Part shown: in pieces, positions 4,118-59,928 of the stretch
Numbering within the stretch: the stretch's first letter is position 1
How the letters are laid out: each line of letters opens with the position of its first letter
Assembly: GCA_032718475.1 (NCBI GenBank)
Contig: JAUCBJ010000343.1
Location: 3,762-67,761 of the forward strand
DNA: 64,000 nt
Direction: 5' to 3'
Origin: Nemertoderma westbladi
Taxonomy: Eukaryota; Animalia; Xenacoelomorpha
Position numbers and translations under genes: made by a program
Notes under the pieces: generated by a model
Databases searched by the model: none
What the model was told of the DNA's origin: nothing
The model's input: the letters and a program-made list of their open reading frames with translations, nothing else

Positions 4118-5606
4118 TAACGCCACTAATTGATTGCCACCCCAAATTACAGTAGATGATTTTACACCAAAAACTTAATAGGCACCAAATAAATTTTTTG
4201 TAGCACCAATTTACATCCCCCAATTTTGAATATCTCTCTCACCAAAAACAATTATTCATCCCCCAAAAACAATAATTCATCCCCAAAAACAACTATTCAT
4301 ACCCCAAAAACAACTATTCATACCCCAAAAACAATAATTCATCCCCAAAAACAATAATTCATCCCCAAAAACAACTATTCATACCCCAAAAACAATTATC
4401 CATCCCCCCAACAATTATTCACCCCCCAACCCCAAAAATCCCCCTCTCCCAAAAAAAGACAATTATCCCAAAGACAATTATTCTACCCCCAAAAACAATT
4501 ATTCAATCTCCCTAAAATAATTACTTGTCAACCAAAAACAATTCTTACAGCACCAAATATTTTATGGAAAATTTAATTATACAAATTCATTAATAATTTA
4601 TTTCCTTAAATCAAACAAAATATTTAATTATATTATACCGACGATCCTCGGATGAGTACAAAACAAAGACTCAATTATAAAAACCTGCATAATATTGTAC
4701 CATGTTAACTTTCGTTTATTGTTTTGGTTCCCCCAACACACCTCTGTAACCTGGTCCTTTACTAACCTGCTCCTTTAAATGGCAATGGGACCTAACGCTC
4801 TTTGGGACCTAACGCTGTTTGGGTCCTAACGCGACTTTACCTCTTGGTTTTGTACAGAACGTGCAGTAAAGTGTTTGTTTGGTCTTTGTTTTGTACTCAC
4901 CCGACGATCCTCGTAACAATAGTCTACAACTAAGTCTGTAACTGAGAGTCTGTTTATTTGGGTAGAATAGTTGATTATTTTTGGGGAATATGCATTTATT
5001 TTGGGGGTATGTGTATTTAATTTGAGGGATTATGTATTTATTTTGGGGGAATATGTATTTATTTTGGGGAAAATTATGTATTTATTTTGGGGGAATATAT
5101 GTAGGCCTACTGAATTTAATTTGGGGGATTATGTATTTATTTTGGGGGATTATGTATTTATTTTAGGGGATTATGTATTTATTTTGGGGGGAAATGTATT
5201 TATTTTTGGAAAATTTGTATTTGTTTTGGGAAAATTTGTATTTATTTTGGGAAAATTTGTATTTATTTTGGGAAAATTTGTATTTATTTTGGGAAAATTT
5301 GTATTTATTTTGGGAAAATTTGTATTTATTTTGGGAAAATTTGTATTTATTTTGGGAATATTTGTATTTATTTTGGTGCGAATAATTGATTTTGGGGAGC
5401 ATTTATTTATTTTAGTGTTAATAATTGTTTTTCGTGTTGAAAAATTTATTTTGGTGTTAGAATAATTTTATTTGGTGACTTTACTGTATTTTATTTAGTG
5501 TTAAATAATTTTTATGGGGTCACATTATTTAAATTGGTAATATAATTTTTTTGGTGAAATAATTTCATCGATTTTGGTATGACTTTAATTGGTAGGCCTA
5601 GCCGTC
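4118..5606. mobile_element. Foldback-like element with inverted subterminal 20-21-bp tandem arrays
   Basis: Array ccccaaaaacaataattcat (about 4240-4540) faces an oppositely oriented array ttttgggaaaatttgtatttat (about 4970-5460). Imperfect terminal inverted similarity at about 4118-4170 and 5550-5606. Confidence 0.55.
4650..4902. mobile_element. 253-bp MULE-type MITE nested in the foldback element
   Basis: TIRs ggatgagtacaaaacaaagac / gtctttgttttgtactcaccc, flanked by the 10-bp direct repeat GACGATCCTC (4640-4649, 4903-4912). Confidence 0.75.
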
Positions 5607-11899: not shown

Positions 11900-14050
11900 T
11901 TTGAACCGTTTCAACAGATTGTTTCAGTATCTCACATACTGCGCGAACGCGGAGGTATCTAAAACGTGTCAACAGTTCGTTACACCATGTTGGAGTACGC
12001 CACGCGCTGCGCGAAGGTCTCTCAAACGTTTCAACATATTGTTACACAATGTTACAGTAAGCCACGTGCTGCGCGAAGGTCTCTTAAACATTTGAACAGC
12101 TTGTTATACAATGTTACAGTGCGCCACGTGCTGCGCGAAGGTCTCTCAAACGTTTCAACAAATTGTTACACAATGTTACAGTAAGCCACGTGCTCCGTGG
12201 AGGTCTCTTAAACGTTTCAACAGCTTGTTACACAATGTTACAGTTCTCTACATGCTGCCCATTCTGCTAAGTAGGGCATGTACGCCGAACGCGTTCGGCG
12301 CACAATTTTTTCCATAATTTGGAGCAGGCGCAGAAAATTGAGAGCGCAGCGCCGCGCAGCGCGCAGGCGCAGAAAATTTAGAGCGCGGCGCCACAGGCGC
12401 AGGCGCAGAAAATTGATAGCACGGCTCAGACTTGCACTACAGCACTAAGTCAGTACCGATAAGTAGACCTACCCGCTACCCCTGGCAGTCTGCTGACTAC
12501 CGGTAACAGGGTAATGACAATACAGATAAGACTGTAAGAAATACTGAAATAATAAGCCTCCTACTTGCTACTTGGCTGCTTGGTGTGCTTTAGGCCAGTA
12601 CAGCAGTAGGCAGGCAGGTACGTGGTAGGAGATTTCGCGCAGTATTTCTGCTGTGCGCGCCAATCTCGCGCAGAATTTCTGCTGCGCGCGCCAATCTCGC
12701 GCAGTTTTTTTGCTGCGCACGCGGATTTTGCACTGTTTTCGACTGCGCAGGCGCACAATTTTTTCTGCGCCGCGTCGCGTTCGGCGCACAAAAAAATCAC
12801 TTAGCATACAGGCATGCTGCGCGAAGGTCTCAAAAGTTTTAACAGATTGTTTCAGTATTTCACATACTGCGCGAAGGTCTCTCAAACGTTTCAACAGATT
12901 GTTTCAGTAGGGCCTACCCCATGTGCTGCACGAAGGTCTATTAAACGTTTCAACAGCTTTTTATAGAATGTTACAGTGCGCCATGTGCTGCGCGAAGGTC
13001 TCTCAAACGTTTCAACAGAATGTTACACAATGTTACAGTAAGCCACGTGCTGCGCGAAGGTCTCTTAAACATTTGAACAGCTTGTTACACAATGTTACAG
13101 TTCGCCACAAGCTGCGCAAAGGTCTCAAACGTTTCAACAGATTGTTTCAGTACCCCATGTGCTGCACGAAGGTCTATTAAACGTTTCAACAGCTTGTTAT
13201 ACAATGTTACAGTGTGCCATGTGCTGCGCGAAGGTCTCTCAAACGTTTCAACAGAATGTTACACAATGTTACAGTAAGCCACGTGCTGCGCGAAGGTCTC
13301 TTAAACATTTGAACAGCTTGTTACACAATGTTACAGTGCGCCACGTGCTGCGCGAAGGTCTCTCAAACGTTTCAACAGATTGTTACACAATGTTACAGTG
13401 CGCCACGTGCTGCGCGAAGGTCTCTCAAACGTTTCAACAGCTTGTTAGGCCTACACAATGTTACAGTAAACCACGTGCTGCGTGAAGGTCTCTTAAACAT
13501 TTGAACAGCTTGTTACACAATGTTACTGTGCGCCAAGTGCTGCGCGAAGGTCTCTTAAACATTTGAACAGCTTGTTACACAATGTTACAGTGCGCCACGT
13601 GCTGCGCGAAGGTCTCTCAAACGTTTCAACAGCTTGTTACAATGTTACAGCAAGCCACGTGCTCCGTGGAGGTCTCTTAAACGTTTCAACAGCTTGTTAC
13701 ACAATGTTACAGTTCTCCACATGCTGCGCGAAGGTCTCAAAAGTTTTAACAGATTGTTTCAGTATTTCACATACTGCGCGAAGGTCTCTCAAACGTTTCA
13801 TAAGATTGTTACACAATGTTACAGTATCGCATGTGCTGCACGAAGGTCTCTTAAACGTTTCAACAGATTGTTTCAGTATCCAACGTGCTGCACGAACGTC
13901 TCTTAAACGTTTCAATAGATTGTTACAGTGCCCCACATGCTGCACGGAGGTCTCTTAAACCTGTAAACGTTTCAATGGATTTGTTTCAGTATCTCACATA
14001 CTGTGTGAAGGACATGGAAGGTATCTTAATCATTTCAACAGATTGTTACA
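11900..14050 (+). repeat. Minisatellite, about 62-bp unit (with about 52-bp variants)
   Basis: Unit aaggtctctcaaacgtttcaacagattgttacacaatgttacagtgcgccacgtgctgcgcg repeated in tandem, interrupted at 12259-12812. Confidence 0.9.
12259..12812. mobile_element. 554-bp insertion with 8-bp TSD inside the minisatellite
   Basis: CATGCTGC at 12251-12258 and 12813-12820. An uninterrupted unit at about 13711-13750 has it once. Imperfect TIR ccattctgctaagt / acttagcatacagg; inverted gcgcag repeats inside. Confidence 0.8.
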
Positions 14051-17839: not shown

Positions 17840-20270
17840 AAGTTCCAAAATTGGATCAAGTCCAAAATCGCCTATATCACCGACTGAAGTAGGCCCACCT
17901 GTCAGCCTGTCTGAAGTCCTGGAAGTCTGCATGTGTGCAGTGCACTTCTTACTGGTCCGCAATGCGGCAATGCCTAATCCAGTACCGTAATCTCTAAAAT
18001 CACATACAGACATAGCAGCATACTGCTGTACTGGCATAGGCCTATGGGCTACGGATTATTCTCCATAGGAATCCATTACATACGCACATACGCGTATGTC
18101 AGTAGGCCTATCAGCTGTCAGCCAGTCAGCCTATGTCAGTATGTACATACGGCAAATGCATACGGACAGACGGACGGATACGGCGAAAAGTTATACCCGT
18201 TTACCTTTCAGTCATTGTTTGTCGAGACGAGAACTGACGAAATGTATGTATAGGCCTACTTCCCATTAGACTACGACTACATGTTCTCATTGTTCCATGT
18301 TCTGACTGCTGATGATGTTATTTAAAGAAAACTAGGCTGTAGGCACTACCGCAGTACACAGTAGGCTACTCAGCTACTGGCTGACTGGTTAGATACGATA
18401 CAGGGCACAGGCTGACAGGGCTGCAGGGGGCCATCCTGAGTGCTGATTTCAGAATCACACCAAGTCACAAAAAAATTGAAAAGTAAACAGTAAAAGAGTT
18501 ACAGTGGTAGCCAGAACCAGAACTGCAGAAGCTGAGAAGCAGAGAAGACAGGAAGGAACTAAAACAATAAACGATTTCTGGATTTGCAAAAACAAAAGAG
18601 CAGAAAATTGCAAAAAAAACAGCTGTACCGGCTGTACCAGCTGTACAGCTGTATCTAAGATCTAACCAGTCCCGAAAACTGTACAGCTGCCTGCGCAGCG
18701 GTCAGCCCGGACGCTGCTAACTATCAGTGCTGCAGTGTCAGAGTCAGACTGTGTTCAGACTGTACGATACCGGTACAGCAGTAGGGTACCTAGCTACAGC
18801 ATACAGTATGCAGTACAAGTATAAACACTACCTGTCAGCCTGTATACTGCTATAAAAGCGAACAAGCCACACAAGCGACATAAGCCAACCATCAGGCAGT
18901 CAGGAGAAGGGGTACCTACAGTCCATGTGCAAAATGAATAAATCTGAAAGGTGAAAAAAATGTAAATCTTGAGATATGTTGTATGAAAAATATGTAAGTG
19001 ACTGGATATATTTTGGCAAAGGGACATGTCATTTTTGCATTTTTTAATTGATGCTTTTTATAATCGACTTTCGTTAACCATTCGACAATGTAAATTTATT
19101 TTCTTTTTTGTCGGTTTAAATTTTTCTAATCTCTTTATTAAGGTAGGTGCTAAAATGCACAACAAGCAACAATGACCAAACAACGAGCAACAACGAGCAA
19201 CAATGAGTAACAATGACCAACAAAGAGCAACAACGATGAGCAACAACCCAGTTAAACATGAGTATGTGTTTCATATATGGTTGCCATAAATAATTCGACA
19301 TGTGATACATATATGTAAATGTTATACAGTGTTGTCAAATGTGATCCATATGTGGAATGTTCACATCCCGGGTTGAAATTCTTAGTATATTTCCTAAGTT
19401 CAAAACAAGTCTGCTTAGTAAGACTTAGAACGCTTAGCAACGCTGGTGCCAAGGGTGAGTAAAGTCCTTAACAAATTTTCCAATTTTATAAAAAGGACAT
19501 TGCAAGTTTATAATGTTTAGCAAGTTGTTGCTATGCGACTGACAAGTATTACAGGATATATAAACGTGCTTTATATGTAACCGATGATATATGCAAGCAC
19601 TTTGCAAGTGTATTGAACTAATAACATGCGCATTACAAATATAGCATATACAGTATCTCTAACCTATATATTCCCGGCACTAGTTCGAACCTGCGTCGCT
19701 AATTTTTTTAAGTAATAATTATTTTTGAAAAATATATATTATGGGAAGAGTAGTGGAGTGGCGAATGAAAGTAAGTGATTACCCCCCCCCCCCCCCCCCC
19801 CCCCCCCCTCCCATCATTAGATAAGAGAAACAACACATGGAACATCATCATAGTGAGTGATGTATGATTGAAACATAGCACATGTGTTCGGTTTGATACT
19901 CTTTGTTGCCCCCCCCCCCCTCCCCCCCACCCCACCATCACATATGTAGACAAATTAATACAGAGACTCTTAATGTTTTTAATATAAACAACATAATCAA
20001 CAAACATATTATTACTCATAGATTACATAGATATATACACATCATATATAAATGCGTAAATACTGTAGGTCTACACTAAAACACAGTTACGTCGAAAACT
20101 TAATCAAAAAGTTCAAAAATGGTATTCCTAATTTCTGCAATAAAACTATTTAATTCAAATTTGTAATCTTATCAAGTACTACAGTAGATTACGACGAAAT
20201 AAAATAAAAAATTTATCACCCGTCATATAAAGATACTATCGGTAATAAAATCATCATATATTATAATTAT

Positions 20271-20857
20271 TGTGAGCGGATTCAATTCCGCCTCACCAAC
20301 CCCCATAAAGTTGGGAAACGGCGCCTTTAAGCAATATTGGGGAATACGAGATTGATTACCAATCAACCTCGTATCACCCCAATAAACGGGGACGACAAAC
20401 CCCCAAAGGGCCGCACACAATAGAGGTCAGAGGTTAAGCCTCCGGGAAAGGGAAAGTGACAGTAGCAAGGGGGAAACACTCCCACAGAGGTGGGATCCGA
20501 GAATTAGGTTATTGGCCAATGGGGGGCAAGCATCGACTGAGTAGTAAGGCCCCAAAGTAAGTAATCAATATATATTACCGGTCAGTGTCATATCACAGTT
20601 AGTTATCTCAGTCATCTAAGGCTGATCGGTGACATTTCTATACCGTCACCACCGTCACCATCATTACCGGTACTACAGTAGAACCATACACTGTAAACTA
20701 ACTACATCATACCATCAACTGTGCTATTGTATCTTATTGTCATATATTTACCGTCTACATTAATATCAGAACAACAACGAACTATTATCTTCCTTTTCCA
20801 ACGGTACGGTGACGCGTAATACAAACTAACCGGTCGGGATCCTCTGATCCCGTCACA
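20271..20857 (+). repeat. 5' LTR of Bel/Pao element 1
   Basis: tgtgagcgg...cccgtcaca, duplicated at 25829-26416. Confidence 0.95.
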
Positions 20858-20911
20858 GTATAGAAATCTAAGGACTGCCAAACTGTGACTGCCAGACACC
20901 AAAGAGTAAAG

Positions 20912-23900
20912 ATGAGCCAAGAGGGAGAGAGGACACCGCCGCGGACCCCGGACGACAACCTAACTATCCGCGAGGCTGCGGCGCGACGGTATCGACCCAT
21001 GACGCCGGATCCGTCGACTACAGACGATCCGGCAATCCAAGCGGAGGGGGGCCATCTACAACCGAGAGGGGAAGAGTCGACGCACAGCGGCGGTCGGAGC
21101 ACCGGAGTCGCCGGCCAGCCACAGGCCGAGGGCGACGGACGGCCCAACGGAACAGCGACGGTGGGGCCGCCGGTACGACGCCGAACACGGAGAGAAAGAG
21201 GGGATGTTGGCGACGAGGACGTCGGAGTCAGCGATCGGCTCCGACGAGCCTACAACGCAACCAGAAAACAGCTGAGGGAAGCCAAAGAAGGGGCAAAGAT
21301 GGAGCAGGTGAAGTTAGAGAAGCGGCTAGGTGAGTCGAATAAACATTTTGATTATCTAGTGCGCTTTGGGCAGGGAGAACTAGCCAATGAGAGAGCGAGA
21401 GGGGTCGTCACCGAACTGTTCGAACTGTGGGAATGTAGGGGTATGGAGCCTGGTGTAGTGTACATAGGGCCATACTTAGTTGATGCCCGGGGAATTAAGT
21501 TAGTGGGTTGGAGGGGACCGCAGGAGGGCGAATCCGAGGTTAACCCCGAGGATTCGGTCTCGTCGGTCAACGAAAACCCCGGAGAGCGGGGGAAAGTTAG
21601 CAGGACAGAGAGGCGACGGGAGTCCGTCGTGACCGATAAGTCCGCTACATCCTCCGCGAAAGAAAGAAGGGTGTTAGAAATAGATCTGGTGGATCTGGTG
21701 GGGTCGAACTCCGGAAGATTGCCGTCACCCCGGAGAAACGCACCGCACGCCAAGAGAAGGGTACAGGACGTACCGATACGAAGACGAGAACAGGAGAGGG
21801 GATCGAAGAGAAACTTCCTGACGGGATATAGCTGCCGATCGAGAGTACGGTAGTCGCGGGGAGATTCGAGATCCGAGAAGATTAAACTTCGGTTCGGAAG
21901 GGCACATGCAGACTGCAGGACATACTGTAGGCCTTACTGCACATACTATTATAGGCCATGCTGGGAGAGATAGTGTAGGTGATAGGGTAGCGCGGACGAC
22001 GGGATAAGATCCGGAAGTTGCGGAGTACATGCCTGTAGGTAGGCAAGAAGTAGATAGGCCTATATCGGTACCAGCACAGCAGCATGACTATAATATCCAG
22101 GGACATAACATATATCCAGGGGAGGGGAGAGTTATTGCAGATAGATGTATGGGCCCCAATATATTAACATCAACCCCAGTACCAAACATACCGGTGGGGG
22201 GGGGGGGGGCAGGGTGACATTCCCCCATTACAATATCAACAATATACTCGAACAGCAATGAGTACATCGAACCCCCTGGACGAGAACAGGTCGTGCGACA
22301 CGGAAATATGGAGGGGGCCATTACCCCCAATGATATATCCGACACAAGTTAGGTCAACAGACAGGACGGGCGGACCGCACCCAACGGGAGAATCTGTACA
22401 GCATCCATCGAACCCATTGGAAGCACAGGCAATGGGAATGGCGACACTAATCGATGCACTAAAGACTAGGATCGAGTTACCACCAGTCGAGCCATTTAAA
22501 TTCGACGGAAGTAGGACGGAAGAATACCTGCAATTTTGGCGCATGTACAGCAACGAGATATTAAGTAAGAACTTGACGCAGGCGGAGTGCCTAAAATATC
22601 TACAAGTGTATACAGGAGGCCCAGCATACGACATCGTGAGGCAGTACCAGGGCATCGAGGGTGGCTTCACGACAGCATGGCGGGCGCTAGACAGGGAGTA
22701 CGGGCACCCGGCCAAGATCATCCGGCAGACCCTGAGAGGTATAACATCGGGTGGCCTACAGGATAACCCCTCTAGCATAAAGACGTTTGCGAACAAAGTC
22801 GAGAAGGCGTTAATCGTGCTGAAGACACTAGACGCGCCATACGAACTCAACGCATCTAATAACATCACCACAATAGCGCAGGCACTGCCGATCTGGCTGC
22901 GGAGCAAGTGGAGGAAGATCGCCTTCTCCACTCGGGAGAAGAATGGTGCGGAGCCGGGGCTAGAGGAAATGTCAAACTTCTCAACTACGAAGCCGAGTTG
23001 ATCACAGACCCAGTCTATAGTGAGGATAGTTTGGGGAAGGCGCCAAAGACCGAATACAACAGGCCTAAACCCGAACACAATCCTGCAGATCCATTCCCGA
23101 GAGTAAGACAGTCGCTACCACACGCGGCCATACAGGGGGCTACAAGCCCACAGTTAGCTGGGAGTAGGGCCACACCGTGGCAGGGACAGAAAGAAAATAA
23201 CACCACAAATAAACATAATCCCAACATACCCAGTAGGCCGAATCTAGATAACCAAAACACTAAATTGGTAGATATAAACCTACGCGCGATATATGAAGGA
23301 CTATACAGGGAACGCTATATTCCAGGATTCGAATGTCAATTACATCGGGACGGAACCCATAAGACCATGAGTTGTAAGCACTGGCAAGCGTTGCCCAAAC
23401 AAGATCGTATAGCCTACACAGACGCAAACGGACTATGTCATCGATGTGTGGTAGAAGGACACAGATCCGGAGAGTGTAGAGAAACAGCAGCAAGAGAGGA
23501 TGAGACTGGAGGCCAAACCATGGCTACAAGCACGACAGTAGCAAGAAAAAAGAGGAAAGTACTACTCGGGGTAGTACCTGTTAAGATATCAGGAAAGGGC
23601 GGTCGATCAGTTACAACATTAATGCTGGTCGACAGCGGAGCAGCCTTCACGCTGGTGGAGAACTGGGTGGCCAAAGAGATAGGGCTAAAGACGAGGCCGA
23701 ATATGATTGCGGTAACTACCGTCTCAAGTAAGGATGAGGTCCTGGAGATGAGGATGGGGCGGTGCAAGATTAGCAGCGATAGCACCGGGATGCGATTATG
23801 GGGCGACGATCGACCCCATCCATGTGATAGAATCGATAAATATCAACACCAGGCGACCAACCAACATCGAAGTCAAACAATATAGATTCCTGGACAGTAT

Positions 23901-24717
23901 CGATTTCTCAATACCAAAGGTGGACGTTAGGAAGGTATCCATTATAGTAGGAATGGACTGCCCCACGGCCCACGAGAGAATGCAGACAGTCTTCGGCGAA
24001 GACAGATAGCGGGATCCGACGGCGATCCTCACGCCGTTCGGATGGACGCTTAGCGGCCCAGTTAAAACCAAGATTCCATCCGGGGTGACGGAGACATCAG
24101 GATGCATGTTACCAGGCACTGTAGACACAGAGGACGAAGAGAAGAAACAGGAGATGGTAGATGAGCAAGACGGGGAAGTAACAGTAGGAGAGTGGGCGGA
24201 GGAGAATGGATTTGATGCGGAAGATTTAGAGGCAACGGGATGGAACAAGGGTCCCAGCAAGTATCGGTATGGAGATGGAGAGGAGCGGACGGCGAGATGT
24301 CCAGAGGATAACCCGGAGGAGTGTCCGGTGGAGTGTCAGGAGGACAATGGTCCGGAGGAGTGTCCAGAGGAGTGTCCGGAAGAGACGCCGGTCCGGTCGG
24401 GAGGCATACCGACAAGGGGGAGATCGAGTAAGAAGACAGGATGGAAAGGGATAGGATTACTATTGTTCGTTCTGTTTTGTCTGTTCTTTCAGTTTCGTTC
24501 CATTCTGCCGCCGGGAGGCGACCAGCCGAAGGGTGGAATTTTGTTGCCAGGAGACGAGGAAGTTAAGAAGGCGGCGGAGAGACCCGATTTTAGGGTGGCA
24601 GAAGAGGGAGAACCAATTCCTGGTGAGTTGGAATTTGCGAAGAGAGTGTGGCGAATCCTACAGGACCTACAAGGGGAGCAGTGGGAGAGTGCCTGTTGGA
24701 AGAATCGCCCTAGTTAG
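20912..24717 (+). pseudogene. Disrupted Bel/Pao gag-protease polyprotein with vestigial pol tail
   Basis: Pieces in several frames: N-terminal ORF 20885-21853; gag core LPPVEPFKFDG...LKYLQVYTGGPA...ALDREYG (22258-23001); knuckle CHRCVVEGHRSGEC; protease LVDSGA; TPFGWTLSGP; then only short pol-like remnants (WNKGP, VPVGRIALV). Confidence 0.8.
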
Positions 24718-25828
24718 GTGAAGTTTAGTCGTCCAATATTTTGGACTGAGGGGGTGGGAATGAGGGCGAGACGCCCTTCCCACACAAATAAATAATTAAA
24801 AATAATTATAAATAATTAAATAACAATTAAGTAGAAAGTTAGAAGTATGAAAGTTAGTAAAAGTAAGTAGAAGTAAGTAGCAGTCAGAAAGTTAGTTAGA
24901 AAGTTAGAAAAATTAGGTTAGAAGTCGGCGGGTACAGGGAGTGTGGTATATAGACATACCACGGGAGTAGAGGGGTACGTGGTACCGTTAGGTTAGAAGT
25001 CGGCGGGTAAGGGAGTGTGGTATATAGACATACCACGGGAGTAGAGGGGTTGTGGGCACCGTAAGCGCCACGTAGAAAGTAGTAGTAGGGGGGTTGTGGG
25101 CACCGTAAGCGCCACGTAGAAGTAGTAGTAGAGGGGTTGTGGGCACCGAAAGCGCCACGTAGATAGAGGTAGTAGCTGAGAGTGGTTGTGGGCACCGAAA
25201 GCGCCACGTAGTTAGAGAGTTCTAGTTAGAGGGCTAGAGAGTTAGTAGACTTCGAGGAGTCGGAGAGTTAGTAGAGTTAGTAGAGTTAGGAGTTAGTTAG
25301 AGTTAGAGAGTTATTAGAATTAGAGAGTTAGTAAGTAAGTAGTAAGAGAGTTAGATAGTAAGTAAGAAGTAAGTAGTAGGTTGATAGAAGGATAGCACAG
25401 GGGTAGCATAAGAGAGTTAGCGCCTTTGAGGGCAGTATGAAAGGAGTATGGAGAGGAGCTGCTGGCGAGAGAGAGTGCGGACGAGTGCGATTCAGGTGTG
25501 GGGAGAGGACAGAGCGGAGTTAGAGTGGAGTTAGAGCGGAGTTAGAGATAGAGTAGAGTGAGAAGTCAGAGTTGAGAGTGAGTTTTAAAATTGTGTGAGA
25601 ATCCACAATCGTCTCGACACGAGACGCCAGATGTCTTGGTGCAACATAGGTTGGAGTTGCACCAAGAGAGGGTAGCGACATCATACCCAGAGGGAGCGGC
25701 CTGGAAAGCCGACTCCAGAGTAAAAGATAACTCCACCCCACACCCGATAGTAGATCGAGTTCCAGCGGAATTGAAGCGCACTCAGAGGTTGATGCAATCT
25801 TCTCACCGGGAAGATAGCATGGGGGGAG

Positions 25829-26416
25829 TGTGAGCGGATTCAATTCCGCCTCACCAACCCCCATAAAGTTGGGAAACGGCGCCTTTAAGCAATATTGGGG
25901 AATACGAGATTGATTACCAATCAACCTCGTATCACCCCAATAAACGGGGACGACAAACCCCCAAAGGGCCGCACACAATAGAGGTCAGAGGTTAAGCCTC
26001 CGGGAAAGGGAAAGTGACAGTAGCAAGGGGGAAACACTCCCACAGAGGTGGGAGCCGAGAATTAGGTTATTGGCCAATGGGGGGCAAGCATCGACTGAGT
26101 AGTAAGGCCACAAAGTAAGTAATCAATATATATTACCGGTCGGTGTCATATCAGAGTTAGTTATCTCAGTCATCTAAGGCAGATCCGGTGACATTTCTAT
26201 ACCATCACCGCCGTCACCATCATTACCGGTACTACAGTAGAACCATACACTGTAAACTAACTACATCATACCATCAACTGTGCTATTGTATCTTATTGTC
26301 ATATATTTACCGTCTACATTAATATCAGAACAACAACGAACTATTATCTTCCTTTTCCAACGGTACGGTGACGCGTAATACAAACTAACCGGTCGGGATC
26401 CTCTGATCCCGTCACA
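25829..26416 (+). repeat. 3' LTR of Bel/Pao element 1
   Basis: Copy of 20271-20857 with a few differences, followed by TSD ATTAT. Confidence 0.95.
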
Positions 26417-26999
26417 ATTATGGATTGCAGCAATTGTATTTTGAACAATAGGGTTAACTTTTCCTAACGAAAATGGTGGTTCAATGAACAAATTAACATT
26501 AGTTTTTAAAAATAATTTTAGTCATGTTCAACATCATTAATACAAGGAATTCCAAATACGATATAGATATAAAGTTATTATTGAGTTTAGATGCTGTGTG
26601 ATAACTAGCGGTTTATTGTGGTGGTCCAGTTGAATTTTATATACTGTAACTGTACAGGGCATTTTTTTTACAATTTCGTTACTACCCGGTGTCTGTGAGA
26701 AAATACGTTTTCCTTGGGAAAATGTCTGGAAAAAATCAGAATAAAAAATCAGGGAAAATATTTTTAAAGTAGGCCTACTTTTTTATCTTCATTTTGTTAT
26801 TTTTTATTGGGAGCTGCCGCTCCCAAACCCCAGACCCCCGTTTAGTACAATGAAACGGCTTTAACAATAATATAATATAAAGCAGAATTTACAATTAATA
26901 TTATACGCTGTGAATCTTACAAGAACCTACAGTCACTATAATTCCAAAGAGACTAGCACAGATACAAATAAGAGAAAACACAACACATTACATAGTTTA

Positions 27000-27720: not shown

Positions 27721-28884
27721 TGTAAAGGCTTTTGCGGATATAACTAGTCATTTTCCCCGCAAAGTACTCTGTAGGTGTTTTAGCGGACATAAAAAGCCAT
27801 TTTTCTGTATGTGTACTTTAGCGGACATAACAAGCCATTTTATGCCGCAATACGCCAAAATACTCTTAATACAGTGTGGCTTCAGATGACGAAATCTATC
27901 AGCTGATTTTGATGTCGATGTGGAGCTTTCTTAACTCTCTTTGTTCAGCTCACTCGACCAATCAGAGCGATTTTCATTTTATTTGTACAGAAGCCTACGG
28001 GAAATCGCGCAATGCATGACGGTCTTTGTTTACCTTTTTCCTGAGCCCAGAACATCGGCTTTGGAATTATTCTTAGTTTCAGACTTTAGCCAAACATTCG
28101 ACGGCTTTGATTATAGGAACGTATAACTGTTATCGCACCAGACTCATACCAACCTGACCACAAATCAGCTCATATTATACATACCTTTCACCGCATTATT
28201 TTACTGCTATTTACTGTCGGTTATTAATTGTTAGAAGTTGATGGATATGTTGTTATATTTGGAGAATATCGATAAATAATCATAAAACCCCAATCTTCTT
28301 GATATACTGAAGGTTAGAGAGACCGGTTACCTGTAGCAATTGCGACTTACATTATAGTGGTTTTGGAGTGAATTGAATGCTATTTCATAATCCCTACATG
28401 TGTCAGTTACTATTCTCCTTATATATGATCAAATTTAGTGAAGGTCGGCAGATCAGTGTGCAGCAGTGTGCGGTAGTGTGCATGAGTGTGACAGATAACA
28501 AAGCATTTCCTAAAGAATGCGCTTTATACGAAAATCATTAGCCATCCCGTTGTGTTTAGTGTAAGTCATAACTCTGTTTACATACTTAGAGCGCCACGTC
28601 CTAAAGGAACTGTTAATATTTCCCGAAAGTAAATAATATTTGTCAGAGATTATATATTAACGATCAATCGAATAGTACAGTAAGTCTACACCGCAATAAG
28701 GTCAGAGCCTCCGAATCCAGTCTCCCTTAACTGTGGGTGAATGGTCGCGCATAGGCTGGCTTCGGCTAATGTAACTTTATATCTTATATGCAACAAATAC
28801 TTGTTATAGGCTAAAGTCGATTTATAAACTAGAAGACACCTAAAATTAGCGGGTTAAACTGCTAAAGGTCTAAAAGCGCGAACA
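27721..28884 (+). repeat. 5' LTR of Bel/Pao element 2 (1164 bp)
   Basis: tgtaaaggcttttgcgg...aaagcgcgaaca. Tandem ttagcggacataaNaagccatttt repeats near its start; CCAAT at about 27957. Confidence 0.95.
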
Positions 28885-30817
28885 ATAACAGTTATATTAG
28901 TTTCTTTATTGCAACGTAGGCAATAAAGTCGAAAGTACCGGTCGACCGGTAATCTGTAGGCCTAACTACATAACCACCCGAACCGGTACTTACAGCAGTA
29001 CAAGTACAGCAGTATTATTCGATTTTGGTAATTATATACCGGTAGGTCTTGATATTTAATCAGGGACTGCAGCCCTGGTTTTTTATTGGGATTTTACTTA
29101 TTTCTGTCAGTTTTATTTATCTGTAAGTTAATATTGAGCAGAAGGCGTGTAAGCCTGCTCAGATTGTATAAATAATTTGTAGGCTGGATTGTTGTCTGGT
29201 TGTTGTTAAGTCTGAAGAGATTGCAGTGTGTGTAGAGTGTATGTCCGATAAAGTACTAGTTAGGAACGTGGGACATCCAGAGCTGTAAGGTAAATCCCCC
29301 CCCCCCCCCCCCCCCGAAAGAATAAGTCGTACTACTCAGTTAGAACGCATACTAACTAACCATTTCGGAGTCTGCATATACTGTAGTTTATTTAGGCTTG
29401 ATAGTAGTCTGCCAGCGTTTGGTCTGTATTTTGTTTGTGTAGTCTGTACGGGTAGCGTAATATTTATTATTCAGAGTTTATGCGATTATTCGCAACATAC
29501 ACAACCCCAAGTTTATTCCTACAGTAATTGTGCTTGTTATACATACTGTTATAGTTAAATTAACCCCGGCACTACATCAGGGCTGTTTGGCATAGGTAAA
29601 GACTGGTGATTTTATGCTCTAGTCACTCCAGCAGATACCGTGGTTCTTTTAGCTGTACAAGTATTTTTAACTGCTGGTTATTTGTTGTATAAGTACTTGT
29701 ACCTAATTTAGGGTTTAGTGTACAGTGCTTTCCGAAGGTAATTAGTTTGTAGGCAGTATATTTGTGTTGTAAAGTGGTTAATAGGCACGTTAGCTATAGT
29801 TGGCTGCGGTAATTAACTTCTAGGTAGGAACACTCCGGGTACATAACGTAGTACTTATAGAGCTGTAAGCTAGAGACTATAAGTCGTCAGACGGTGGTAT
29901 TTTCTTATCTAGACAACGCAATATATTTACTACTGCTTAATTATTTTCAAATACCGTAGTATCCTGTCCGTTGTAAAAACCAGAAATTCTAACCCCTTGT
30001 TAGGCTGGTTTGTAGATTTCTTGTAAAATTAACCCTAAAATTTGTACGTGTAATTTTTGTGTTTATTTAGAGATTGTAATCTCATCCCTTAATTGTACGT
30101 AATTTGTAGTAATAAGTAACTTAATAAATTAGAATTATTTGTTTTAGTGTCCAATAAGTAGCACTCCACTGAGAGCGTTCAGCTTCTGTGAAGTGACTCC
30201 TTATCTAGAAATAATAACATTTATTTCGAATATTGTCAAAACCCATTAAACGGGTATATATATTATATTATAAATCAACTCAAACCGATTTACATAATAG
30301 TAGGCCTGTTATACATAAATTAGGTCTTAATATCAGTTGGACTACTGCTTAAATAACGGTAATAAAGTGAAGTAAAGTAACTAGGTAACCCTAAAATTCA
30401 GAAATTCAATTATTCTAAAATAATTGACATACCGGTATTTACGATAGGCTTATTATATTTATTCTATAAATTTATGCTGAAATTATATACCGGTATTCTG
30501 TAATTAATTTAGTCTATAATTATACTTATATATACTACAAGTGTAAGCTGTATACCGGTATTCACGGTAGGCTTATTATATATTTATATATATTTATGCT
30601 GAAATTATATACCGGTATTCTGTGACAAACCCTAGTCTGTAATAATACATATATATATACTATAAGTGTATACCGGTATTCTAATATATTGTATATATAT
30701 CACGTTACACTGAGTAACGATATCGGTAATTAATTACTAGGCTTTTAATTGATACTGAATTACTAGACTTGCTTTAACTGTAGTTCTAGCAGTAGGCATT
30801 CAACTGTACAAACAAAC

Positions 30818-33800
30818 ATGGCTGACACAAAGCAAAACCTGTCAGACAGTCTCCTAGATACAACCATCTGTGATCCAGATAGGAGTGCGGAACGTTTGAG
30901 ACCGAAGTTCAACTCCCCTCCTACTGTAAGAAAGGTCATCCCTCCAGTAGTAGTATCAGACCCTAGGCTAGTAAAGTACCGTAGGTCTATCATAGGCACT
31001 CGGGCTCAAGTCAAGCGGGACCAAGAGGCAGCTGTTAAACAACAGCAACACCCGAGCCGAGAACTTATTTCTCAGCGGCCCAATAGCTCCAGTAGTTCAG
31101 ATACTGTAGAGTTGACACCCGAGCGCGGAGCAAAGATGGCAGAAGCGGTTTATTCGGATCCACTTCTCATTCTTCCTGCAGCCGTACTCACTAGGGTATT
31201 GATTGCGGTGGAGGAACACCAAATGGATTGGGCGAGAAGTAAGCGATCAACCAAGGACAGTTATGCGGGATACACAAGGGAGGAACTGAAGTCTATTGTC
31301 GAGACGCAATGGAACTTCCCCAGACCCAGACTCCCGTTTAACTTATCGGAAGCTGCCTGGGAGGACTTATACAGGATGGGAGTGGTAAGGGCACAAGAGA
31401 TCCAGCTGTGTGGAAGAGGTTGGCAGCAGGATATGTACAGGGATTCTTCAGCTCTTTGGAGCGATTAGAGGAACAACTGTTTCAACAACCCCAAGGACCT
31501 CAAGAGCAGGGAGAGCTGCTTTATCAAGTTCGAGAACGTATCCTAAGAATCAGACTGATCCTATCGGCCTTTGAGGAAGCTTCGAAAAGAGGCCAAGACA
31601 CGTTGTTGCAAGTTGCCGTAAAGACTTGGTTCCAGCGGGTGGGTCTCAAAGTTCAAGGAACGTCCCAGTGGAAATTTCAGTTGGCTGAGCGCTCAACCCA
31701 CGGAGAATCAACAGACGCTACCTTTTCTCAAGTGGAAAGCGAAGCGACAGCAGAGAAACCTCAGAAGAAGGACGCTATTGACATATATCTGTCGGACTAT
31801 CAACGATTTCTAGGTGACGAAGAGTTGAGGAGACGGCTGGCTGGACTTCGTCCTAATAGTGAACGAGCCAAGTTTGTGTTGGACGCAATAGATGCGGAAA
31901 GGTTAGAAGCGGATCGAGCTAAATTTGATGAAAGAATCCGCATCGTTAGGGAACAGGAAGAACAATTAAAGAAAAAACAAATAGAAGACAGAAAGGCAGC
32001 AACAGCAGCAGCGGCAGAAGTGAAACGAAAAGCTGCAGTAGCAGAGGCAGAAAGAAAAGCGGCAGCGGCAGCGGCAGAGGCAGAAAGAAAAGCGGCAGTG
32101 GCAGAGGCAGAAAGAAAAGCGGCAGCGGCAGAAGCCGAAAGAACTGCGGCGGAGGCAGTGTTAGAAGCAGAACGGAAGGCATCTGAAGAGACAACCCAAC
32201 TAGAGTTGGAAAATCTTCAAGAGAAGCAAGACTACTTAAATAAACAGATAACAGCTAGTCAGATGCAGCTGATAAGTCGATCTACTCCCAAGCGACAGGG
32301 ATTTACATCATCTGATGAAGGCGAGACAACAGATCCTGAAGGCGGAGGAAATAGATCTCGTCTCAGCAGGCGTAGAAGAACGCCTCACCGTCAGAAATTG
32401 CCTAATTTGCCCCCAGCCGTGAGAAGGCAACTAGCTAGCACAGACTTAGGTAGTACAGAACCCACAGACCAAATTATTAGAGTTGAAAGACTCCCTACTA
32501 TAGTAGATGAGCCTGAAATAATTAGACCTGTTCTCGAAGCCACCCCTTCTGTGATAGAGACCCCTGTACTTCCAGAACCTAACTCTAAATTCCCTTTGCA
32601 CAGTACTAAACTACCTGTATCCAGTAGGACAGTTCCTCAGTCAACTCTGGTCCTGGACGCCGAGCGAGACATTAACAATTTGTCACCCGTCGTCCCTCGT
32701 CTACCCGCTACTATGTTGGCGGCTCCCGCTTCGGCGGTAGAGTGGGTGGATGAGCGACGGCGGGGGATGGATATTCTCCTCGGGCAGATAGAGGAGAATC
32801 AGGCACGCTCCTCCCAGCAGGTCCGAGAGTTGGAGGGGACTGTTCAACAGTTAAGGGGAACAGTAAGAGAGAGTAGGTTAGAATTACAGGAAGTGCAGCA
32901 GAGTATCGCGTTAGAATGAGATAAGTTAGTAAATCTACAAAAGGGTGTACCACCACCCTCTGTAACAATGTGTCAACCTGTTAGGTCTGAAGTATTTCAT
33001 GCGCAAGGTGTGGAGCCTACACGCCTCTATACTGCTAGTGAAGTAGAAACTCCTATAGTAAACCCTAATAAGGGTAATTATAAACCTGTTGGCAATGATA
33101 TTCCATATAGACCTGATAATAATCCGAGAAATTTATATACCGATAACTCGATATTAAATAATACGATGGCTCAAGAAAGTTTTACGCGTCAAATGGCTAG
33201 AACTGAAGCCCGTCAAGCGGTAAAGGTGGGAGAGATCGTCAAGTTCAATGGAGATGAGATGAAATGAAATGGTTACCATTTAATGAATATTATAAAGATA
33301 ACATACAGAACTCTGTGCTATCTAACGGAGAGAAACTTAGATTCCTCATCGAGTGCTTGGAAGGATCTCCCAAGTTAATGGCGTTAAAGTTTATTGGACA
33401 TCCAGATGGATTAAGACAAGTTTGGGATACACTAAACATCAGGTATGGTAATAGGAATAACATAGCTAGGTATTTGTATGCGAAATTGGTAGCGCCCCGA
33501 AAGTTTCTTAGCAGCGGGATTATAGAATTTTCCGATGAAATCCAGGAGATTTGTAGACAATTAGATTGGCTAGGTAAGTCTCATGAATATCAGAGTTCTA
33601 TGGTTATTGGAGCTGTAGCATCTACCTCGCCAAAGGGTGGAGTGGGTACTCGTTGGGACAAAAGAGTTCTATATATAATGGAACAACAACGAAGAGACCC
33701 TACCATGGCTGATCTCATGTCATTCTTGGATGGAGAGGTAAAATTACAGCTCCTAAAGCAGTCCAGAGAGAAGACACCGGAAAATAAGGTAAGTGAGAAA

Positions 33801-36800
33801 CCCGTTTCTAGGAGAAAGGTAACACCAGTGTGTTATACAGATGATGGCGAAAGCCAAACCTCTCAAGAGGAGAGCAATGGGAAAGACACTGAAAGATCTT
33901 ACTATGTCAACAAAACACCAAAGGATGTAAGTAAATTTAAGTCTCGAACCAGTGACAGGAGAGAACAGACAACAAAAACTCCTCCCACGTCTCCTAAGAG
34001 AGTTCATGGAAGAAAGCCCGAGGAAAAAACGAGTGTGCACAACACTACCCAAGGTAAAGTAAGTAACATCAAACCAAAATGTGCTTTGTGCGACGGGCCC
34101 CACCGTTTAAGTGTGTGTGAGGAATTCTTAAAGAAATCCCTGAAGGATAGACGCGAAGTCATGTGGGATAAGCGGTTGTGTTATAATTGTCTCAGACAAG
34201 GACACCAACGGCGAACCTGTTACTCCGACGCAAGGTGTGTGAAGTGCGGCACGAAACATCATATTTTGTTGCACACCGAATTCGAAAGAAACAGCCCGAG
34301 TCAAGTAAGTGAGTCCGAACTACATGTCCAATTCAGTGATGTGAACGACACTGACCTCAGTTCTGAGATGGAAGGATTCTACACGGATGAATTCTCCGAC
34401 GAAAACAAATCCTGTTATCTAATAAACACCGCAGTGTATCGAGCACTTACGTATGAGACTGAAACTGATAGTGAGCTCCCCCTAACTATTCCAGACCGAC
34501 AACCATCTTGGAAAGCGCCAACTTCCAACGTAGGAATCCGAGAATTTCCCGTAGTGCAGTTGAGAGTCCACGGGTTAGAAAAGAGCTATATAGTGAACGC
34601 CCTCCTTGACTCCGGCAGCACAGGAACATTCATCGACAAAGAACTAGCCGAAGACATCTTTGCTGGACAACCCAAGTTCCGAACTAAATTGAACCTTTCA
34701 GGAATTATGCAGGTTTGGAAATCTACAGTAACTACAGACTACTATGTAGGCGCGTTGTCCACCCCCCAGGATGAACTAGGAGAACACAGTATAAGGTCAG
34801 TAAAAATGGTGGCGATAAAGAACTTCGCTACCAGCCAAGTGAAACCTTATAACTGGGATGAAGACGATTTCACCCAGCAGCATGAGATACCTAGATTCAA
34901 CACCGACTACCCAGGGGTACAAATACTCATCGGCCAAAATGCGCATGAAGCGCTTGAGACATTATAGAAATGGCCTGCTCAACCGCAACCACTGCAAACC
35001 TATGCGGGAAGAACCAGAGTAGGTTGGTACTTTACTGGAAAGGCTACCTAAAGAGCAAGTCTACCAGGTGAGTGAATGGGAAGGGGAAATCAGTGAAGGA
35101 GACGACACACCTGAGGGAACACCATATTCCTCAGACAATGACGATATTAATCAACTATTCGACAAGGAGAATACCATCGACCTCCTTACGGAAAGTGAAA
35201 CTTGGCAAAACCAAGTGAACCTGTGTCACCTCATCCATCCAGCGGGACAAGTCGATTACAACAACGAACTGAATGAAGTGATAGATCGTTACAACGCGAA
35301 GACTCGCGATGAACACGCCGTACGATTCTTTACTCAAGAGGCTGTAGAGCCCAATTCCTACGATAAGGCCCTATCGGTAGAAGAGGAAAGAGCCAAGCAG
35401 ATACAGGAAACGACTACACGTTTTCTTAAAGATCAAGGTAGGTATGAGATTGGTCTGCCTTTCCGACGGCAACCCAATTTTATAAACAACCGACCCTTGG
35501 CGGAGAAGAGAATTGCGCAACTCCATCGATGCCTTACGGCAAATGCTTCAGCTAAGGAGATGTACCAGACCCAGCTGAAGAAATTCATTGACAAGGGATA
35601 TGCGGAGCGAGTACCGGAAGAAACACCTATAACTGAGAGAACGTACTATTTAACACATCATTACGTTCCCAAACCCGGTAAACCCAACGAAGTCCGGGTA
35701 GTATTTGACGGCTCTGCCCTCTACATGGGACAATCCCTTAACTCCGAGTTGTTGCCGGGACCCAACTTACTCCAATCCTTGTTGGGAATACTCTTAAGAT
35801 TACGACAATATTCGATCGCTTTCGCCTCCGATATAGAAGGCATGTTCTTACAAGTTAAGGCGCTGGATAAGGATCGGGACAGCCTACGATTTCTGTGGTG
35901 GCCTGAAGGAGACCTCAACCAGAAACCGGTGGAGTACTGGATGACCATTCAGGCTTTTGGGATCATCTCGATATATACATGGACGACAATTTAAAGTTCC
36001 TCCCATCAGTGGAAGAAGCCATTGATGTCGCCAAAGGAACGGTAGAGTGCTTGAAAAGAGGTGGATTTCGATTAACTAAATTCACCAGTAACTCCCGTGA
36101 ATTTCTGGAATCGATCCCGGTAGAAGACCGAGGAGTTAAAGATCTAGACCTTATCAAGGACGATCTTCCAGAAACCAAGACGGTTGGTTTGAAATGGGAC
36201 ACAGAGAGAGATATCCTGTTTTTCCAGCTAAAACAGCGAGATAATCCAGTTCGGACTAAATGGATTTGTCTAAGTATCCTGAGCACTTATTTCGATCCAT
36301 TGGGATTTATTAGCCCAGTTATATTGATTGCTTGGAGTTTAGTACAACAAATGTGGCTTGAAAACCACTCGTGGGACGATCCACTTAAGGGAGAACTATT
36401 AAAGAAGTGGATGAAATGGGAAGATTCTCTACCATCTATCGAGAATTTTACGATTTCCTGTTCATATTTTGGTCATGTTCTCCCCACGTATTCCTACCAA
36501 CTCCATGTGTTTGGAGACGCCAGCGATATGGGAATAGGTATAGTAGCCTACCTGAGAGTTGAAACTCCGGATGGAATTAAGGTCGCCTTGGTTACCTCTA
36601 AGGCCTTGATAAACAACAAGTTGAAAGTTCCTGGAGCGGAGTTAAAAGCAGCTCTATACGCTACGGCCATCGGCCGGAATGTAACAGAACAGATCGACTA
36701 TCCACTGGAGAAAACTGTCTATTGGACCGATGCTTTACTCGTGTTGGAGTATATAACCAATGAAGTCTGTCAGTTCAGCGTCTTCATTACCAACAGAGTA

Positions 36801-38861
36801 GCCATTATACTTAGTCGCACGAAGATAGATCAATGGAGGCATTGCCCTGGGACGATTAATCCAGCCGACATCGCCTCCAGGGGAGCAACTCCACAAGAAC
36901 TGATAGATACTCCAGACTGGTTAGGTGGACCCGACTTCCTAAGCAAGGAAGAGGATGAATGGCCTCCTCATCTTACTACGGCGGAGATTAGACAAGCCAA
37001 GGGAGCGGAGAAAGTCAAACCTAAAACCCGGGCGAGTAAATCGAAGTTATTTAAACCCGTGATAGATCTGTCTGTACTACACACTTCCGGAGACGACGTT
37101 TTGGATCCAAAATCCCCAGCCACAAACAAGTCTGTTGTGGAAATCAGAGAGAGAGATTGGAAATCTGGAACACCAGACGTCTCGCAGGGACTCTCACCCC
37201 TCCTGCAGAGAGCGATACATCACTATAGCTCCTGGAATCGGCTTTGTAAGGCTGTTGCTTATTTAAAGCGATGTTTTCATCATCACTACTCCAGGACGAA
37301 GATCGCTAGTGATGCCGCTCCACTGACATCTGCGCAGGTCCATGTTGTTAAAGATCTTCCCAAATACAAGATATCAGACAGATTTCTGAAGGAGAGGATC
37401 AGTTACCAGGAGCATGAAGAAACAAATAAGCAGATACTGAGACTCCTGCAATGCTATGAGGATTCCGATAAGTATTTCCTATTGTTGAGAAATCCACAGA
37501 TGCGCTTAAGGGATCGTTTCTCTAGCACAATGATAGATGGGTTAATACGCGTTGGAGGAAGACTAACTAATGCTCCATTATCCTTTGACACTAAGTTTCC
37601 CATACTCATTAGAAATCTTGAAATACAAATCAAGATGATTGTAGATGTTCACAGTAAGCTTTACCATGCTGGTAGAGAACGAGTTCTTAGCGAAATTCGA
37701 ACTCGCTATTATTTTCATAAACCCCGTAGAGCTCTGAACCAAGTTCTTAGGAACTGCATACCCTGTAGGAAAGCATTCAGTAGGCCTTTAACACAGCGAG
37801 AGACAGAATTACCTAGGGAACGAGTAAGCTTCTATGAACCACCCTTCACAAATACCGGTGTGGATTTATTTGGCCCTATTGAAGTATATCGTGCTAGGAC
37901 TATAGTCAAGAGATGGTGTGTCATCTTTGTCTGTATGACTTGTAGAGCTATCCATCTCGATATGGTGAACGATCTATCTACCAACAGCTTCATACTGAGC
38001 TTACGCCGACAGATCGCTCGCTTTGGAACTAGTAACACGATGAGATCTGATAAGGGAACGAACTTCATTGGTGCCAACAATGAAATCAAGGCTTACGTCA
38101 AAGATTGGAACCAAAGACAGGTGGACGATCAGCTAAGGGTAACAGCGTCTAGCTGGACCTTCAACGCCGCCGACGCCCCTTGGTGGGGAGGAAGTTGGGA
38201 GAGATTAATCAGAAGCGTGAAGACCGCATTTCACTTTATAGTGCCGTGCCGCGTGTATCTCACCGACGAACTTTTGCGGACGTTAATGGAGGAAATCGCC
38301 GCCTATCTCAACGAGAGACCGCTTATGCCAGTCTCATCGAGTCCCGATTCCCTGGAAGCGCTAACACCCACGCACTTCCTACTGAAGAAACCTGTAGCCA
38401 TGCTCTCACGATCGGAAATCACGGACGGAGACGAATACTGCCGGCAAACTTGGCAACTTATGCAGTTGTTATCCTGTCGTTTCGCTGACCATTTCGAAAA
38501 ACATTATCTGCCTACGCTACAACTTCGAACTAAGTGGTTTGCGCAGCAAGAAAGCGTCAGCGCCGGAGACATGGTCCTTATTGTGGAGTCAGATCTTCCA
38601 CGTAAGCGGTGGCAGACAGGTCGTATCATCGAGACTCATATCTCAGATGACGGTTTGGTGCGATCGGTAGAACTCGTCGTCATGCGACGTAACTTTAAGA
38701 AACCTGGAATTGTGTTCGAAACACAACAATTCAATCGCCCAGTTGGTCGTTTATGTTTACTGGAAAGAGACAGAGAACTCTCCGGAAACTATAGAAGGCA
38801 AGATACTCTTCCCACGACCACCTCCCTAATCCAACCAACACCCAGGGACTCCCCAACGTAA
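30818..38861 (+). pseudogene. Bel/Pao gag-pol polyprotein with at least six lesions
   Basis: Coiled-coil N-terminus (KAAAAEAER repeats); three Cys-His knuckles (CALCDGPHRLSVC, CYNCLRQGHQRRTC, CVKCGTKHHILLH); protease LLDSGS; RT VRVVFDGS/DIEGMFLQ/YMDD; RNase H LHVFGDAS, YWTD, NPADIASRG; integrase HAG...CIPC, GVDLFGP, SDKGTNF, WWGGSWERL. Stops or frameshifts near 31460, 32917, 33265, 34965 and 35049, plus a deletion just before YMDD (about 35965). Confidence 0.92.
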
Positions 38862-39760: not shown

Positions 39761-40564
39761 TAAATAATAAAATTTACGGGAATAAATTTAAATTCATCTC
39801 TTTTAATGAATTTGATAAATTGTCATTTTTATACAATTTATAACATTCCCAAAATTCCATTAATTAATAGATCATGGGAGCGGAGATTCACCCTATTAAG
39901 TATATTAGTGTGCGAGAATCTCCAATATATAGTCAATAGCCGATAAAATTTCATAAAATCATGTATAAAGGGGATATTGACAATTAAAGAATTACTATTA
40001 AATAGCATCCCAGATCTGTATGCATGGGAATTACCCTAATTCTACTGCTAGCTTTCCATAATGTCACCATAGCAACAACCACGCTAGAATTAGAAGCGAG
40101 TTAAAAGAACAATAGAAAGCTTGCCCCATTGAATAGCATACGGAATAAATAGCACCCTGCTAGTATCCAGGGATACATAATAATAACGTGGCATTCTGGA
40201 AGGCACTTTACTAACAGACAAATGGCCCGAATGTGTACAATTTGTGACAGGAGTGTGGAATTTGTGTATTTATAGGTGAATGTTACTACTAAAGTGTGTT
40301 TACAGTAGCGAGTCGCAGTTGTGAAAGTAGCCCTAACTCTGCAGTAAGAACCTGAAGTAAATCTAAGCCTTTGGGACGGACAGTGGAGTGACTCGCGCTG
40401 GTTATCATTGTCGTTGTGTAGCTACTACGTTGGCGAAAAACACAGCAACGACGGTACATCGGCGCTGAGGATCTTGCACTGTCCGGGTGCCGTGAGGGGT
40501 AGGCAGCAAAGCCCGCTAGCCTAATTATAACTAATTATAATATTGATAAACTCATCTAGCAGCT

Positions 40565-52291: not shown

Positions 52292-52769
52292 CTACATCCG
52301 CCCAGTCCGGAGTGTTCGGGGAGTGAGGCCATGAGTGCTATAATTTATTTCAAATGGTGATAAAACCATCCTTGCACAATTCTGTGAGATTTTGACATCA
52401 TGTATGGGGTCCTCCAGGCCAATCAAATTAATCCATTTAATGGTTGCGACCGAAGAGTGACACGAAAGCACGAATTTAGAGAAATCCTACTCCATGGCGC
52501 ATTAGTGGGAGTAGCAGTAGAGATATTCAAAACAACAATACAGTGACTATAGTCATCGTGGTATTTGACAAAAAGTGTAGTACAAAAAGTAGTAGTGTAG
52601 CTCCAACATAAACTTCTTGCGTCGCGATATAAGTCTATTGATATTGCTTCGCAATGGTTTTTACCATTCATTTAATACTCACAGCTCACATTCCACTTCT
52701 GATTGAGATATTGCATTGTCAGAATAAAGGTATTCATTATTCGAGCAAGGTATGCCAGTCTAGCTATGG

Positions 52770-55784: not shown

Positions 55785-55809
55785 GGGGCGTAGACGCTGT
55801 GCAGACATA

Positions 55810-59885: not shown

Positions 59886-59928
59886 TTGCTACCACCCGAT
59901 AACCGGAACAACCAACGTCACGATCGCG

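Follow-up and report, generated by a model that had tools for sequence, protein, structure and literature searches.

The question raised by this locus is how a Bel/Pao retrotransposon that lacks the TGG of a tRNA primer-binding site (PBS) could start minus-strand DNA synthesis. The window, a stretch of 64,000 nt from contig JAUCBJ010000343.1 of Nemertoderma westbladi, was compared with itself, which revealed two pairs of long terminal repeats (LTRs), belonging to elements referred to here as E1 and E2. The LTRs of E1 were 98.6% identical over 588 columns, and the element was flanked by a 5-bp target site duplication (TSD). The main features of E1 (positions in the window) were:

20266..20270 (no strand): TSD, left copy, ATTAT; the right copy is at 26417-26421
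20271..20857 (+): 5' LTR, 587 bp, TG..CA
20634..20643 (+): predicted self-primer, complementary to the PBS at every base and uninterrupted by an intron
20858..20867 (+): PBS position, GTATAGAAAT, not TGG, at offset 0 from the LTR end
20912..23001 (+): gag, in pieces, with DUF1759 within 22168-23001
22863..24100 (+): Cys-His box and aspartic protease (DSG), in pieces
25819..25828 (+): polypurine tract, adjoining the 3' LTR
25829..26416 (+): 3' LTR, TG..CA, in which the primer sequence recurs at 26193-26202

The DUF1759 match had an E-value of 5.5e-13 (Pfam). Downstream of the protease, RT, RNase H and integrase were not found with Pfam and Bel/Pao pol profiles; in the latter, only profile positions 6-194 of about 1,315, corresponding to the protease region, matched E1. 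Placed by gag and protease alone, E1 appears to be a non-autonomous Bel/Pao member, and its family likely moved with a borrowed pol. The insertion is polymorphic, because the joint of the empty site was present in contigs from all four public DNA runs compared. The family, with gag and protease only, was abundant, as thousands of contigs covered its internal region. Additionally, an 11-nt inverted repeat (25765-25775 and 25839-25849) flanked the polypurine tract, which it would place in an RNA loop.

According to the initial annotation, the 5' LTR ends in CA at 20857 and is followed directly by GTATAGAAAT instead of TGG, while the exact complement, ATTTCTATAC, lies inside the LTR and is kept in the 3' LTR. 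Both statements were confirmed: GTATAGAAAT occurred once in the window, at 20858, and ATTTCTATAC only at 20634 and 26193. Neither element, E1 or E2, had a TGG within 5 nt of its LTR end. When the LTR was shuffled with dinucleotides preserved, a 10-mer complement at offset 0 arose in 15 of 20,000 shuffles and at any offset from 0 to 3 in 45 of 20,000. Only three of 4,961 internal positions of E1, the PBS itself included, had a 10-mer complement in the LTR. The match in E1 is real and not due to chance. An A-to-G variant at primer position 20640 was common in DNA contigs, among the 40 of 87 rows listed; the variant base would retain pairing through G-U, or through G-C had the PBS changed as well.

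Members of the Belpaoviridae (Semotivirus) are described by the ICTV as tRNA-primed, with an 18-nt PBS for tRNA-Arg or tRNA-Gly, and their replication is called poorly understood (PMC8742986). Self-priming has been described for Tf1/sushi elements (available parts of PMC7175516 and PMC4600332): the PBS is bound by the first 11 bases of Tf1 RNA, and cleavage by RNase H falls between positions 11 and 12 (PMC7175516, available part). In plants it has been predicted for Tcn1 (gypsy) and for TAR, including Houba and Osr-1 (copia), according to the accessible text of PMC6317226. The self-priming proposed here for Bel/Pao would resemble that of Tf1 but lies outside the Tf1 group, and E1 departs from the tRNA-PBS description of its own family.

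The second element, for which the initial annotation had noted the same arrangement with unrelated letters, comprised the following features:

27721..28884 (+): 5' LTR of E2, 1,164 bp
28122..28133 (+): contiguous 12-nt stretch predicted to be the self-primer, 751 nt from the LTR end
28885..28896 (+): PBS position, ATAACAGTTATA, no TGG
33258..38861 (+): gag-pol, in pieces, with DUF1759, protease, RT, Peptidase_A17 (RNase H region), integrase and DUF5641
44848-46065 (+): 3' LTR, with TSD GCAAC

The 5-bp TSD fixes the LTR end at 28884, and a purine tract was present. The best homologs were Bel/Pao proteins with at most 35% identity, and the named ones were from animals. The 12-nt complement, found at 28122 and 45292, bore out the parallel with E1; it arose in 3 of 8,000 shuffles at offset 0 and in 15 of 8,000 at offsets 0-5, and the predicted fold gave the primer:PBS helix a probability of 0.54. 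Both TATATA boxes of E2 lie downstream of the match, which counts against this element: given their position and the 751 nt to the LTR end, the match could lie in U3. The first five letters of the E2 PBS, ATAAC, are also reported for the Tf1 PBS in the accessible text of PMC11042837, and most self-matching PBSs found here start with GT or AT. Shared start letters could be due to chance or to a preference of RT or RNase H. E2 also carries an extra ORF of 1,406 aa after pol (40550-44770, +), which brings the element to 18.3 kb. A Pfam search with the whole protein was empty; a weak zinc knuckle was seen near its end (E 0.0015), and its nearest atlas clusters were EXD1-like 3'-5' exonucleases (0.78-0.86), a lead only that found no support in Pfam or in a PDB sequence search.

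Co-variation of the PBS with the element's own LTR, the check proposed in the initial annotation, was examined in relatives. A search with an alignment of eight proteins yielded at least 105 loci (the metagenome part being the best 80 of 560), which formed 85 families at 80% pol identity; searches of viral contigs gave 0, 1 and 0 loci. The 3' end of the LTR was fixed by two LTR copies in 21 families, and the other 64, in which the end or the LTR was missing, were excluded. Judgement was needed for four LTR ends (L001, L068, L074 and L075). A match was accepted if it started at an offset of 0-5 nt from the LTR end, was contiguous or interrupted by one GTRAG..AG intron, and spanned at least 10 nt. 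Five of the 21 families had a TGG PBS, of a type (TGGTCC..TCGAGCCGG) that we take to be that of tRNA-Tyr, and 16 had a non-TGG PBS.

With E1 and E2 included, 16 of the 18 non-TGG elements had an own-LTR match of 10-15 nt, compared to none of the five TGG elements and 9 of 306 swapped PBS-LTR pairs, seven of these nine via the PBS of three kin that share one motif. Among 900 leader windows used as a control, two matched. Six of the 16 matches were contiguous and ten were split; a contiguous complement of 10-12 nt was present in four of the 16 non-TGG relative families. The two exceptions were L001, with a 13-nt match only at offset 6, and L075, whose LTR end is unclear; a loose GT..AG match in L075 was rejected for its poor donor. 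Outside E2, the distance from the primer end to the LTR end was 62-214 nt, and poly(A)-like hexamers were found downstream of the match in most LTRs. Several PBSs contained GTTCGAA, which resembles the tRNA T-loop. ARAGORN, run on the window and 105 loci, a very small set, gave one tRNA, a tRNA-Asn call at 2473-2544 on the minus strand of the window, with only 4 nt in common with either primer. An Rfam search of 19000-47000 returned no match.

A refinement invisible to the initial annotation is that, in most relatives, the predicted primer is split by an intron. In ten of the 16 matching elements, the same elements from whose inspection the intron idea arose, the match appeared only once a GTRAG..AG intron was removed from the LTR: the partial match started right after a pyrimidine-rich AG, and the missing letters lay directly 5' of an upstream GTAAGT. 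These introns were 71-697 nt long, and the junction was 5-8 nt from the primer 3' end in all ten. The 3-9 primer bases before the splice donor are probably too few for a first exon. When all 256 dinucleotide pairs were compared, a match was rescued by GT..AG in 11 of the 12 elements that had no contiguous one; the runner-up pair rescued five, and the median was 0. With GT as the only requirement, the donors were of the GTRAG form in 9 of the 11 best junctions vs. 16 of the 699 GTs in these LTRs. Thirty-seven families without a fixed LTR end, many of them without a full LTR, had been held out, and with thresholds set after a first look, a split match of at least 11 nt was found in nine of them vs. 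0-4 for 40 permuted motif pairs. One of these nine, L062, looked like a chance hit; it was kept in the count and left out of the trees. Permuted contigs with a downstream ORF gave a candidate in six of ten (four split, two contiguous), which, being uncontrolled, is a lead only.

A GTRAG-donor split match was sought in the LTRs of E1 and E2, and none was found. Removal of the intron raised the predicted pairing in five of the six elements folded; in L060 it fell after splicing, from 0.70 to 0.26. A TATAWA box preceded the donor in two of the ten split LTRs (by 142 and 171 nt) and was not found in the other eight. A match seen only in the spliced form cannot belong to the DNA, which makes RNA the likely place of the pairing.

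The distribution of the two forms was examined in unrooted, quick trees of pol. Among 29 labelled sequences, the six TGG rows lay on one side with weak support (58), the 22 self-matching rows grouped at 99, and E2 formed a long branch of unsure place. The five contiguous rows required five changes, and a single clade of them was rejected (p-AU 2e-45). In a tree of 75 rows, with 12 short rows omitted, the L011 group joined a TGG group at 92; the trees therefore fall short of one self-priming origin. E1 was not placeable in a pol tree; its closest gag match among the loci was L011 (28% identity), which has a split candidate. Repeated intron loss would be the simplest reading of the scattered contiguous forms together with the fixed junction position, and unsplit forms such as E1 are likely intron losses.

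The surroundings of the primer in E1 contained further signals, listed here with the structures predicted by folding:

20557..20562 (+): GTAAGT, a hexamer resembling a splice donor, 5' of the primer and used by no split match
20569..20577 (+): TATA-like run, likely promoter; loose ends from other members of the family also show one
20644..20660 (+): CGTCACC, twice, in a predicted helix with 20803-20814 that stacks on the primer:PBS helix
20808..20814 (+): GGTGACG, partner of CGTCACC in the predicted folds
20818..20823 (+): AATACA 3' of the primer, possibly a poly(A) signal; other members have AATAAA in their loose ends
20835..20852 (+): 7-bp hairpin at the LTR end, U5-IR-like, from fold prediction
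20852..20889 (+): predicted competing U5-leader stem (20852-20858 with 20883-20889), with most of the PBS in its loop

The TATA-like run and TCAGT motifs that had been reported upstream of the match were indeed found, the run at 20569 and the motifs at 20582 and 20608, the first of these motifs reading TCGGT in the 3' LTR; we infer a transcript start near 20595-20610. The suggested pairing of CGTCACC with GGTGACG also agreed with the letters present, GGTGAC at 20808 and GTCACC at 20645 and 20654. Loose contig ends suggest that other members of the E1 family are without the GTAAGT hexamer. The hairpin at the LTR end sits where the summed contig depth of the LTR end region peaks, by far. In nested folds, predicted without pseudoknots or Gag, the primer:PBS pair of E1 had a probability of 0.00-0.02 for four trial starts, in competition with a hairpin around the primer and with the U5-leader stem. 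The best fold left primer and PBS mostly single-stranded in loops, and forcing the duplex cost 3.2-3.3 kcal/mol relative to the best structure. The forced helix stacked on the CGTCACC/GGTGACG helix, with the U5 hairpin adjacent.

On this evidence, E1 probably primes minus-strand synthesis in cis with an RNA stretch from its own LTR and without a tRNA. Transcription would begin upstream of the match. In families with a split match, the spliceosome would excise the intron from the 5' copy of the LTR and so join the two halves of the primer, which would pair with the PBS, aided by the R-U5 helix and the U5 hairpin. A cut at the 3' side of the primer, by the RNase H of RT in analogy with Tf1, would yield the 3'-OH. 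Plus-strand synthesis would copy the primer back into the PBS, by which primer and PBS would be kept in step. The 3' LTR copy would usually have to remain unspliced, so that the intron passes on; if it were spliced, a primer already joined would be handed to the progeny, and the E1 form likely originated in this way. E1 would additionally need RT and integrase in trans. Because the TATA-like run of E1 lies approximately 65 nt upstream, and because so few bases precede the donor in split relatives, the primer is likely internal, as the 3' terminus of a longer fragment with a cap, rather than the first 10-11 nt of the RNA. Of the earlier proposal, priming without tRNA is thus supported by the co-variation across families, while a Tf1-like primer at the RNA 5' end is improbable. 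In its broader form, the proposal is that a large and widespread part of Bel/Pao may have dropped tRNA priming for a primer built by the spliceosome across an intron of the 5' LTR. The split form would be ancestral, only the 5' copy would be spliced, the primer would be cut internally, and primers of the E1 type would stem from repeated, reverse-transcribed intron loss. We hold this broader proposal with moderate confidence.

The complementarity could also reflect a primer that the element encodes but that works in trans: a short transcript of the LTR, made from a solo LTR or terminated at the poly(A) site of the 5' LTR, would be spliced if needed, trimmed and annealed to the PBS of another RNA. 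Every sequence result is compatible with this, as are the poly(A)-like hexamers 3' of the match in most LTRs, the cis fold of E1, which disfavours the duplex, and the abundance of the E1 family. However, the predicted R-U5 helix adjoins the primer helix of E1, as would suit a fold in cis, and priming in cis has a precedent in Tf1 (PMC7175516, available part), so that we consider a trans primer unlikely.

It is quite unlikely that the pairing is regulatory, serving packaging, translation or poly(A) control of the spliced RNA, with priming left to a host tRNA fragment or small RNA. The PBS letters vary by family and follow the element's own LTR, contrary to what a fixed host primer would produce; the match begins 0-5 nt from the LTR end, the point at which synthesis has to start; and the TGG elements were without a match. 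On the other side stand the PBSs with the T-loop-like GTTCGAA. Half-tRNA priming, known in Ty1/copia lineages (accessible text of PMC6317226), also speaks for a tRNA fragment. An SL RNA was rejected as primer by reasoning, one fixed sequence being set against varying PBSs. As E1 is broken and pol-less and has another 11-nt LTR complement near its polypurine tract, its 10-nt match might be taken for chance, or for an inverted repeat at the DNA level in an element that has decayed and lost its TGG PBS. This reading is largely refuted by the rarity of the match in shuffles (15 of 20,000), by the recurrence of the pattern in E2 and 14 of the 16 non-TGG relatives, and by split matches that exist only in spliced RNA, and we regard it as very improbable.

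Priming of E1 in cis from its own LTR would share with Tf1/Tf2 of Schizosaccharomyces pombe a PBS adjacent to the LTR and complementary to a short own-LTR sequence (11 nt in the available descriptions of Tf1), without a tRNA. The U5-IR-like hairpin predicted in E1 (20835-20852) beside the R-U5 helix may be a further likeness to Tf1, but the primer duplex is absent from the best nested fold. For Tf1, Lin and Levin reportedly described in 1998 a supporting RNA structure with a U5-IR-like stem-loop. In contrast to Tf1/sushi, the protein lineage is Bel/Pao and not Ty3/gypsy (chromovirus), as judged by Pfam and homolog searches, and unlike in Tf1, many relatives have a PBS offset by 2-5 nt. Cleavage has been shown for Tf1, as far as the accessible sources go, whereas here it would be a prediction by analogy, and E1 encodes no RNase H. 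As for Tcn1 and TAR, self-priming is predicted from sequence only, within a superfamily otherwise primed by tRNA; those elements are plant copia/gypsy, and no primer intron is mentioned for them in the accessible text (PMC6317226). Half-tRNA priming in the copia lineages Osser, Bryco and Bianca likewise uses a PBS that lacks the TGG expected for a mature tRNA end, but those PBSs are set by the host tRNA, whereas here they vary with the element's LTR (PMC6317226, accessible text).

The elements agree with the Belpaoviridae in LTR size (0.2-1.2 kb), TG..CA ends, TSD, polypurine tract and animal host (PMC8742986). The order gag-PR-RT-RH-IN (with Peptidase_A17 and DUF5641) was found in E2, whereas pol is absent from E1; the Gag and protease were of the expected type, with DUF1759 in both elements and an aspartyl protease in E1. 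Bel/Pao Gag-protease motifs (Cys-His boxes and LLDSG-type) are described in the available part of PMC554778. In contrast to the 18-nt tRNA PBS of the Belpaoviridae profile, E1, E2 and 16 of the 21 fixed-end relative families have no TGG PBS; the other five have TGG. Cer7 of C. elegans is said to encode its own tRNA primer.

Self-priming in Bel/Pao would extend a known mechanism to a third LTR superfamily. It was unreported in the accessible text of PMC554778, PMC3601003 and PMC8220671, and the words primer, PBS, tRNA and priming were absent from PMC3118150. A splice-built or Bel/Pao self-primer was not found in literature titles and the openings of abstracts; Repbase, GyDB or subscription journals may hold an earlier mention. 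If true, a primer built by splicing would make host RNA processing a gate on retrotransposition and offer a natural system for following intron loss through reverse transcription; the elements may also become independent of the supply of tRNA and escape silencing by tRNA fragments at the PBS. The own-LTR rule is a simple, testable way to find the PBS in elements missed by tRNA-based annotation.

Among the loci, 24 contigs in bacterial genome records (L081-L104; MAGs and Wolbachia assemblies) carried Bel/Pao pol genes, likely host DNA binned with bacteria. One of them, L091 (6860-13765), had LTRs that start with TA and end with AA instead of TG..CA, with a clean 5-bp TSD, and the held-out L094 had a similar LTR end. 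Elsewhere in the window, tandem arrays were present at 48900-56300, 11900-14000 and 4200-5470, with units of 63, 21, 12 and 62 nt, as was an ORF with a fibrinogen domain (Pfam), which, like the homologs of E2, points to an animal host. A Gypsy-type element with a DUF7041 gag, RT, RNase H and integrase (59857-63749, +) was situated where the window ends.
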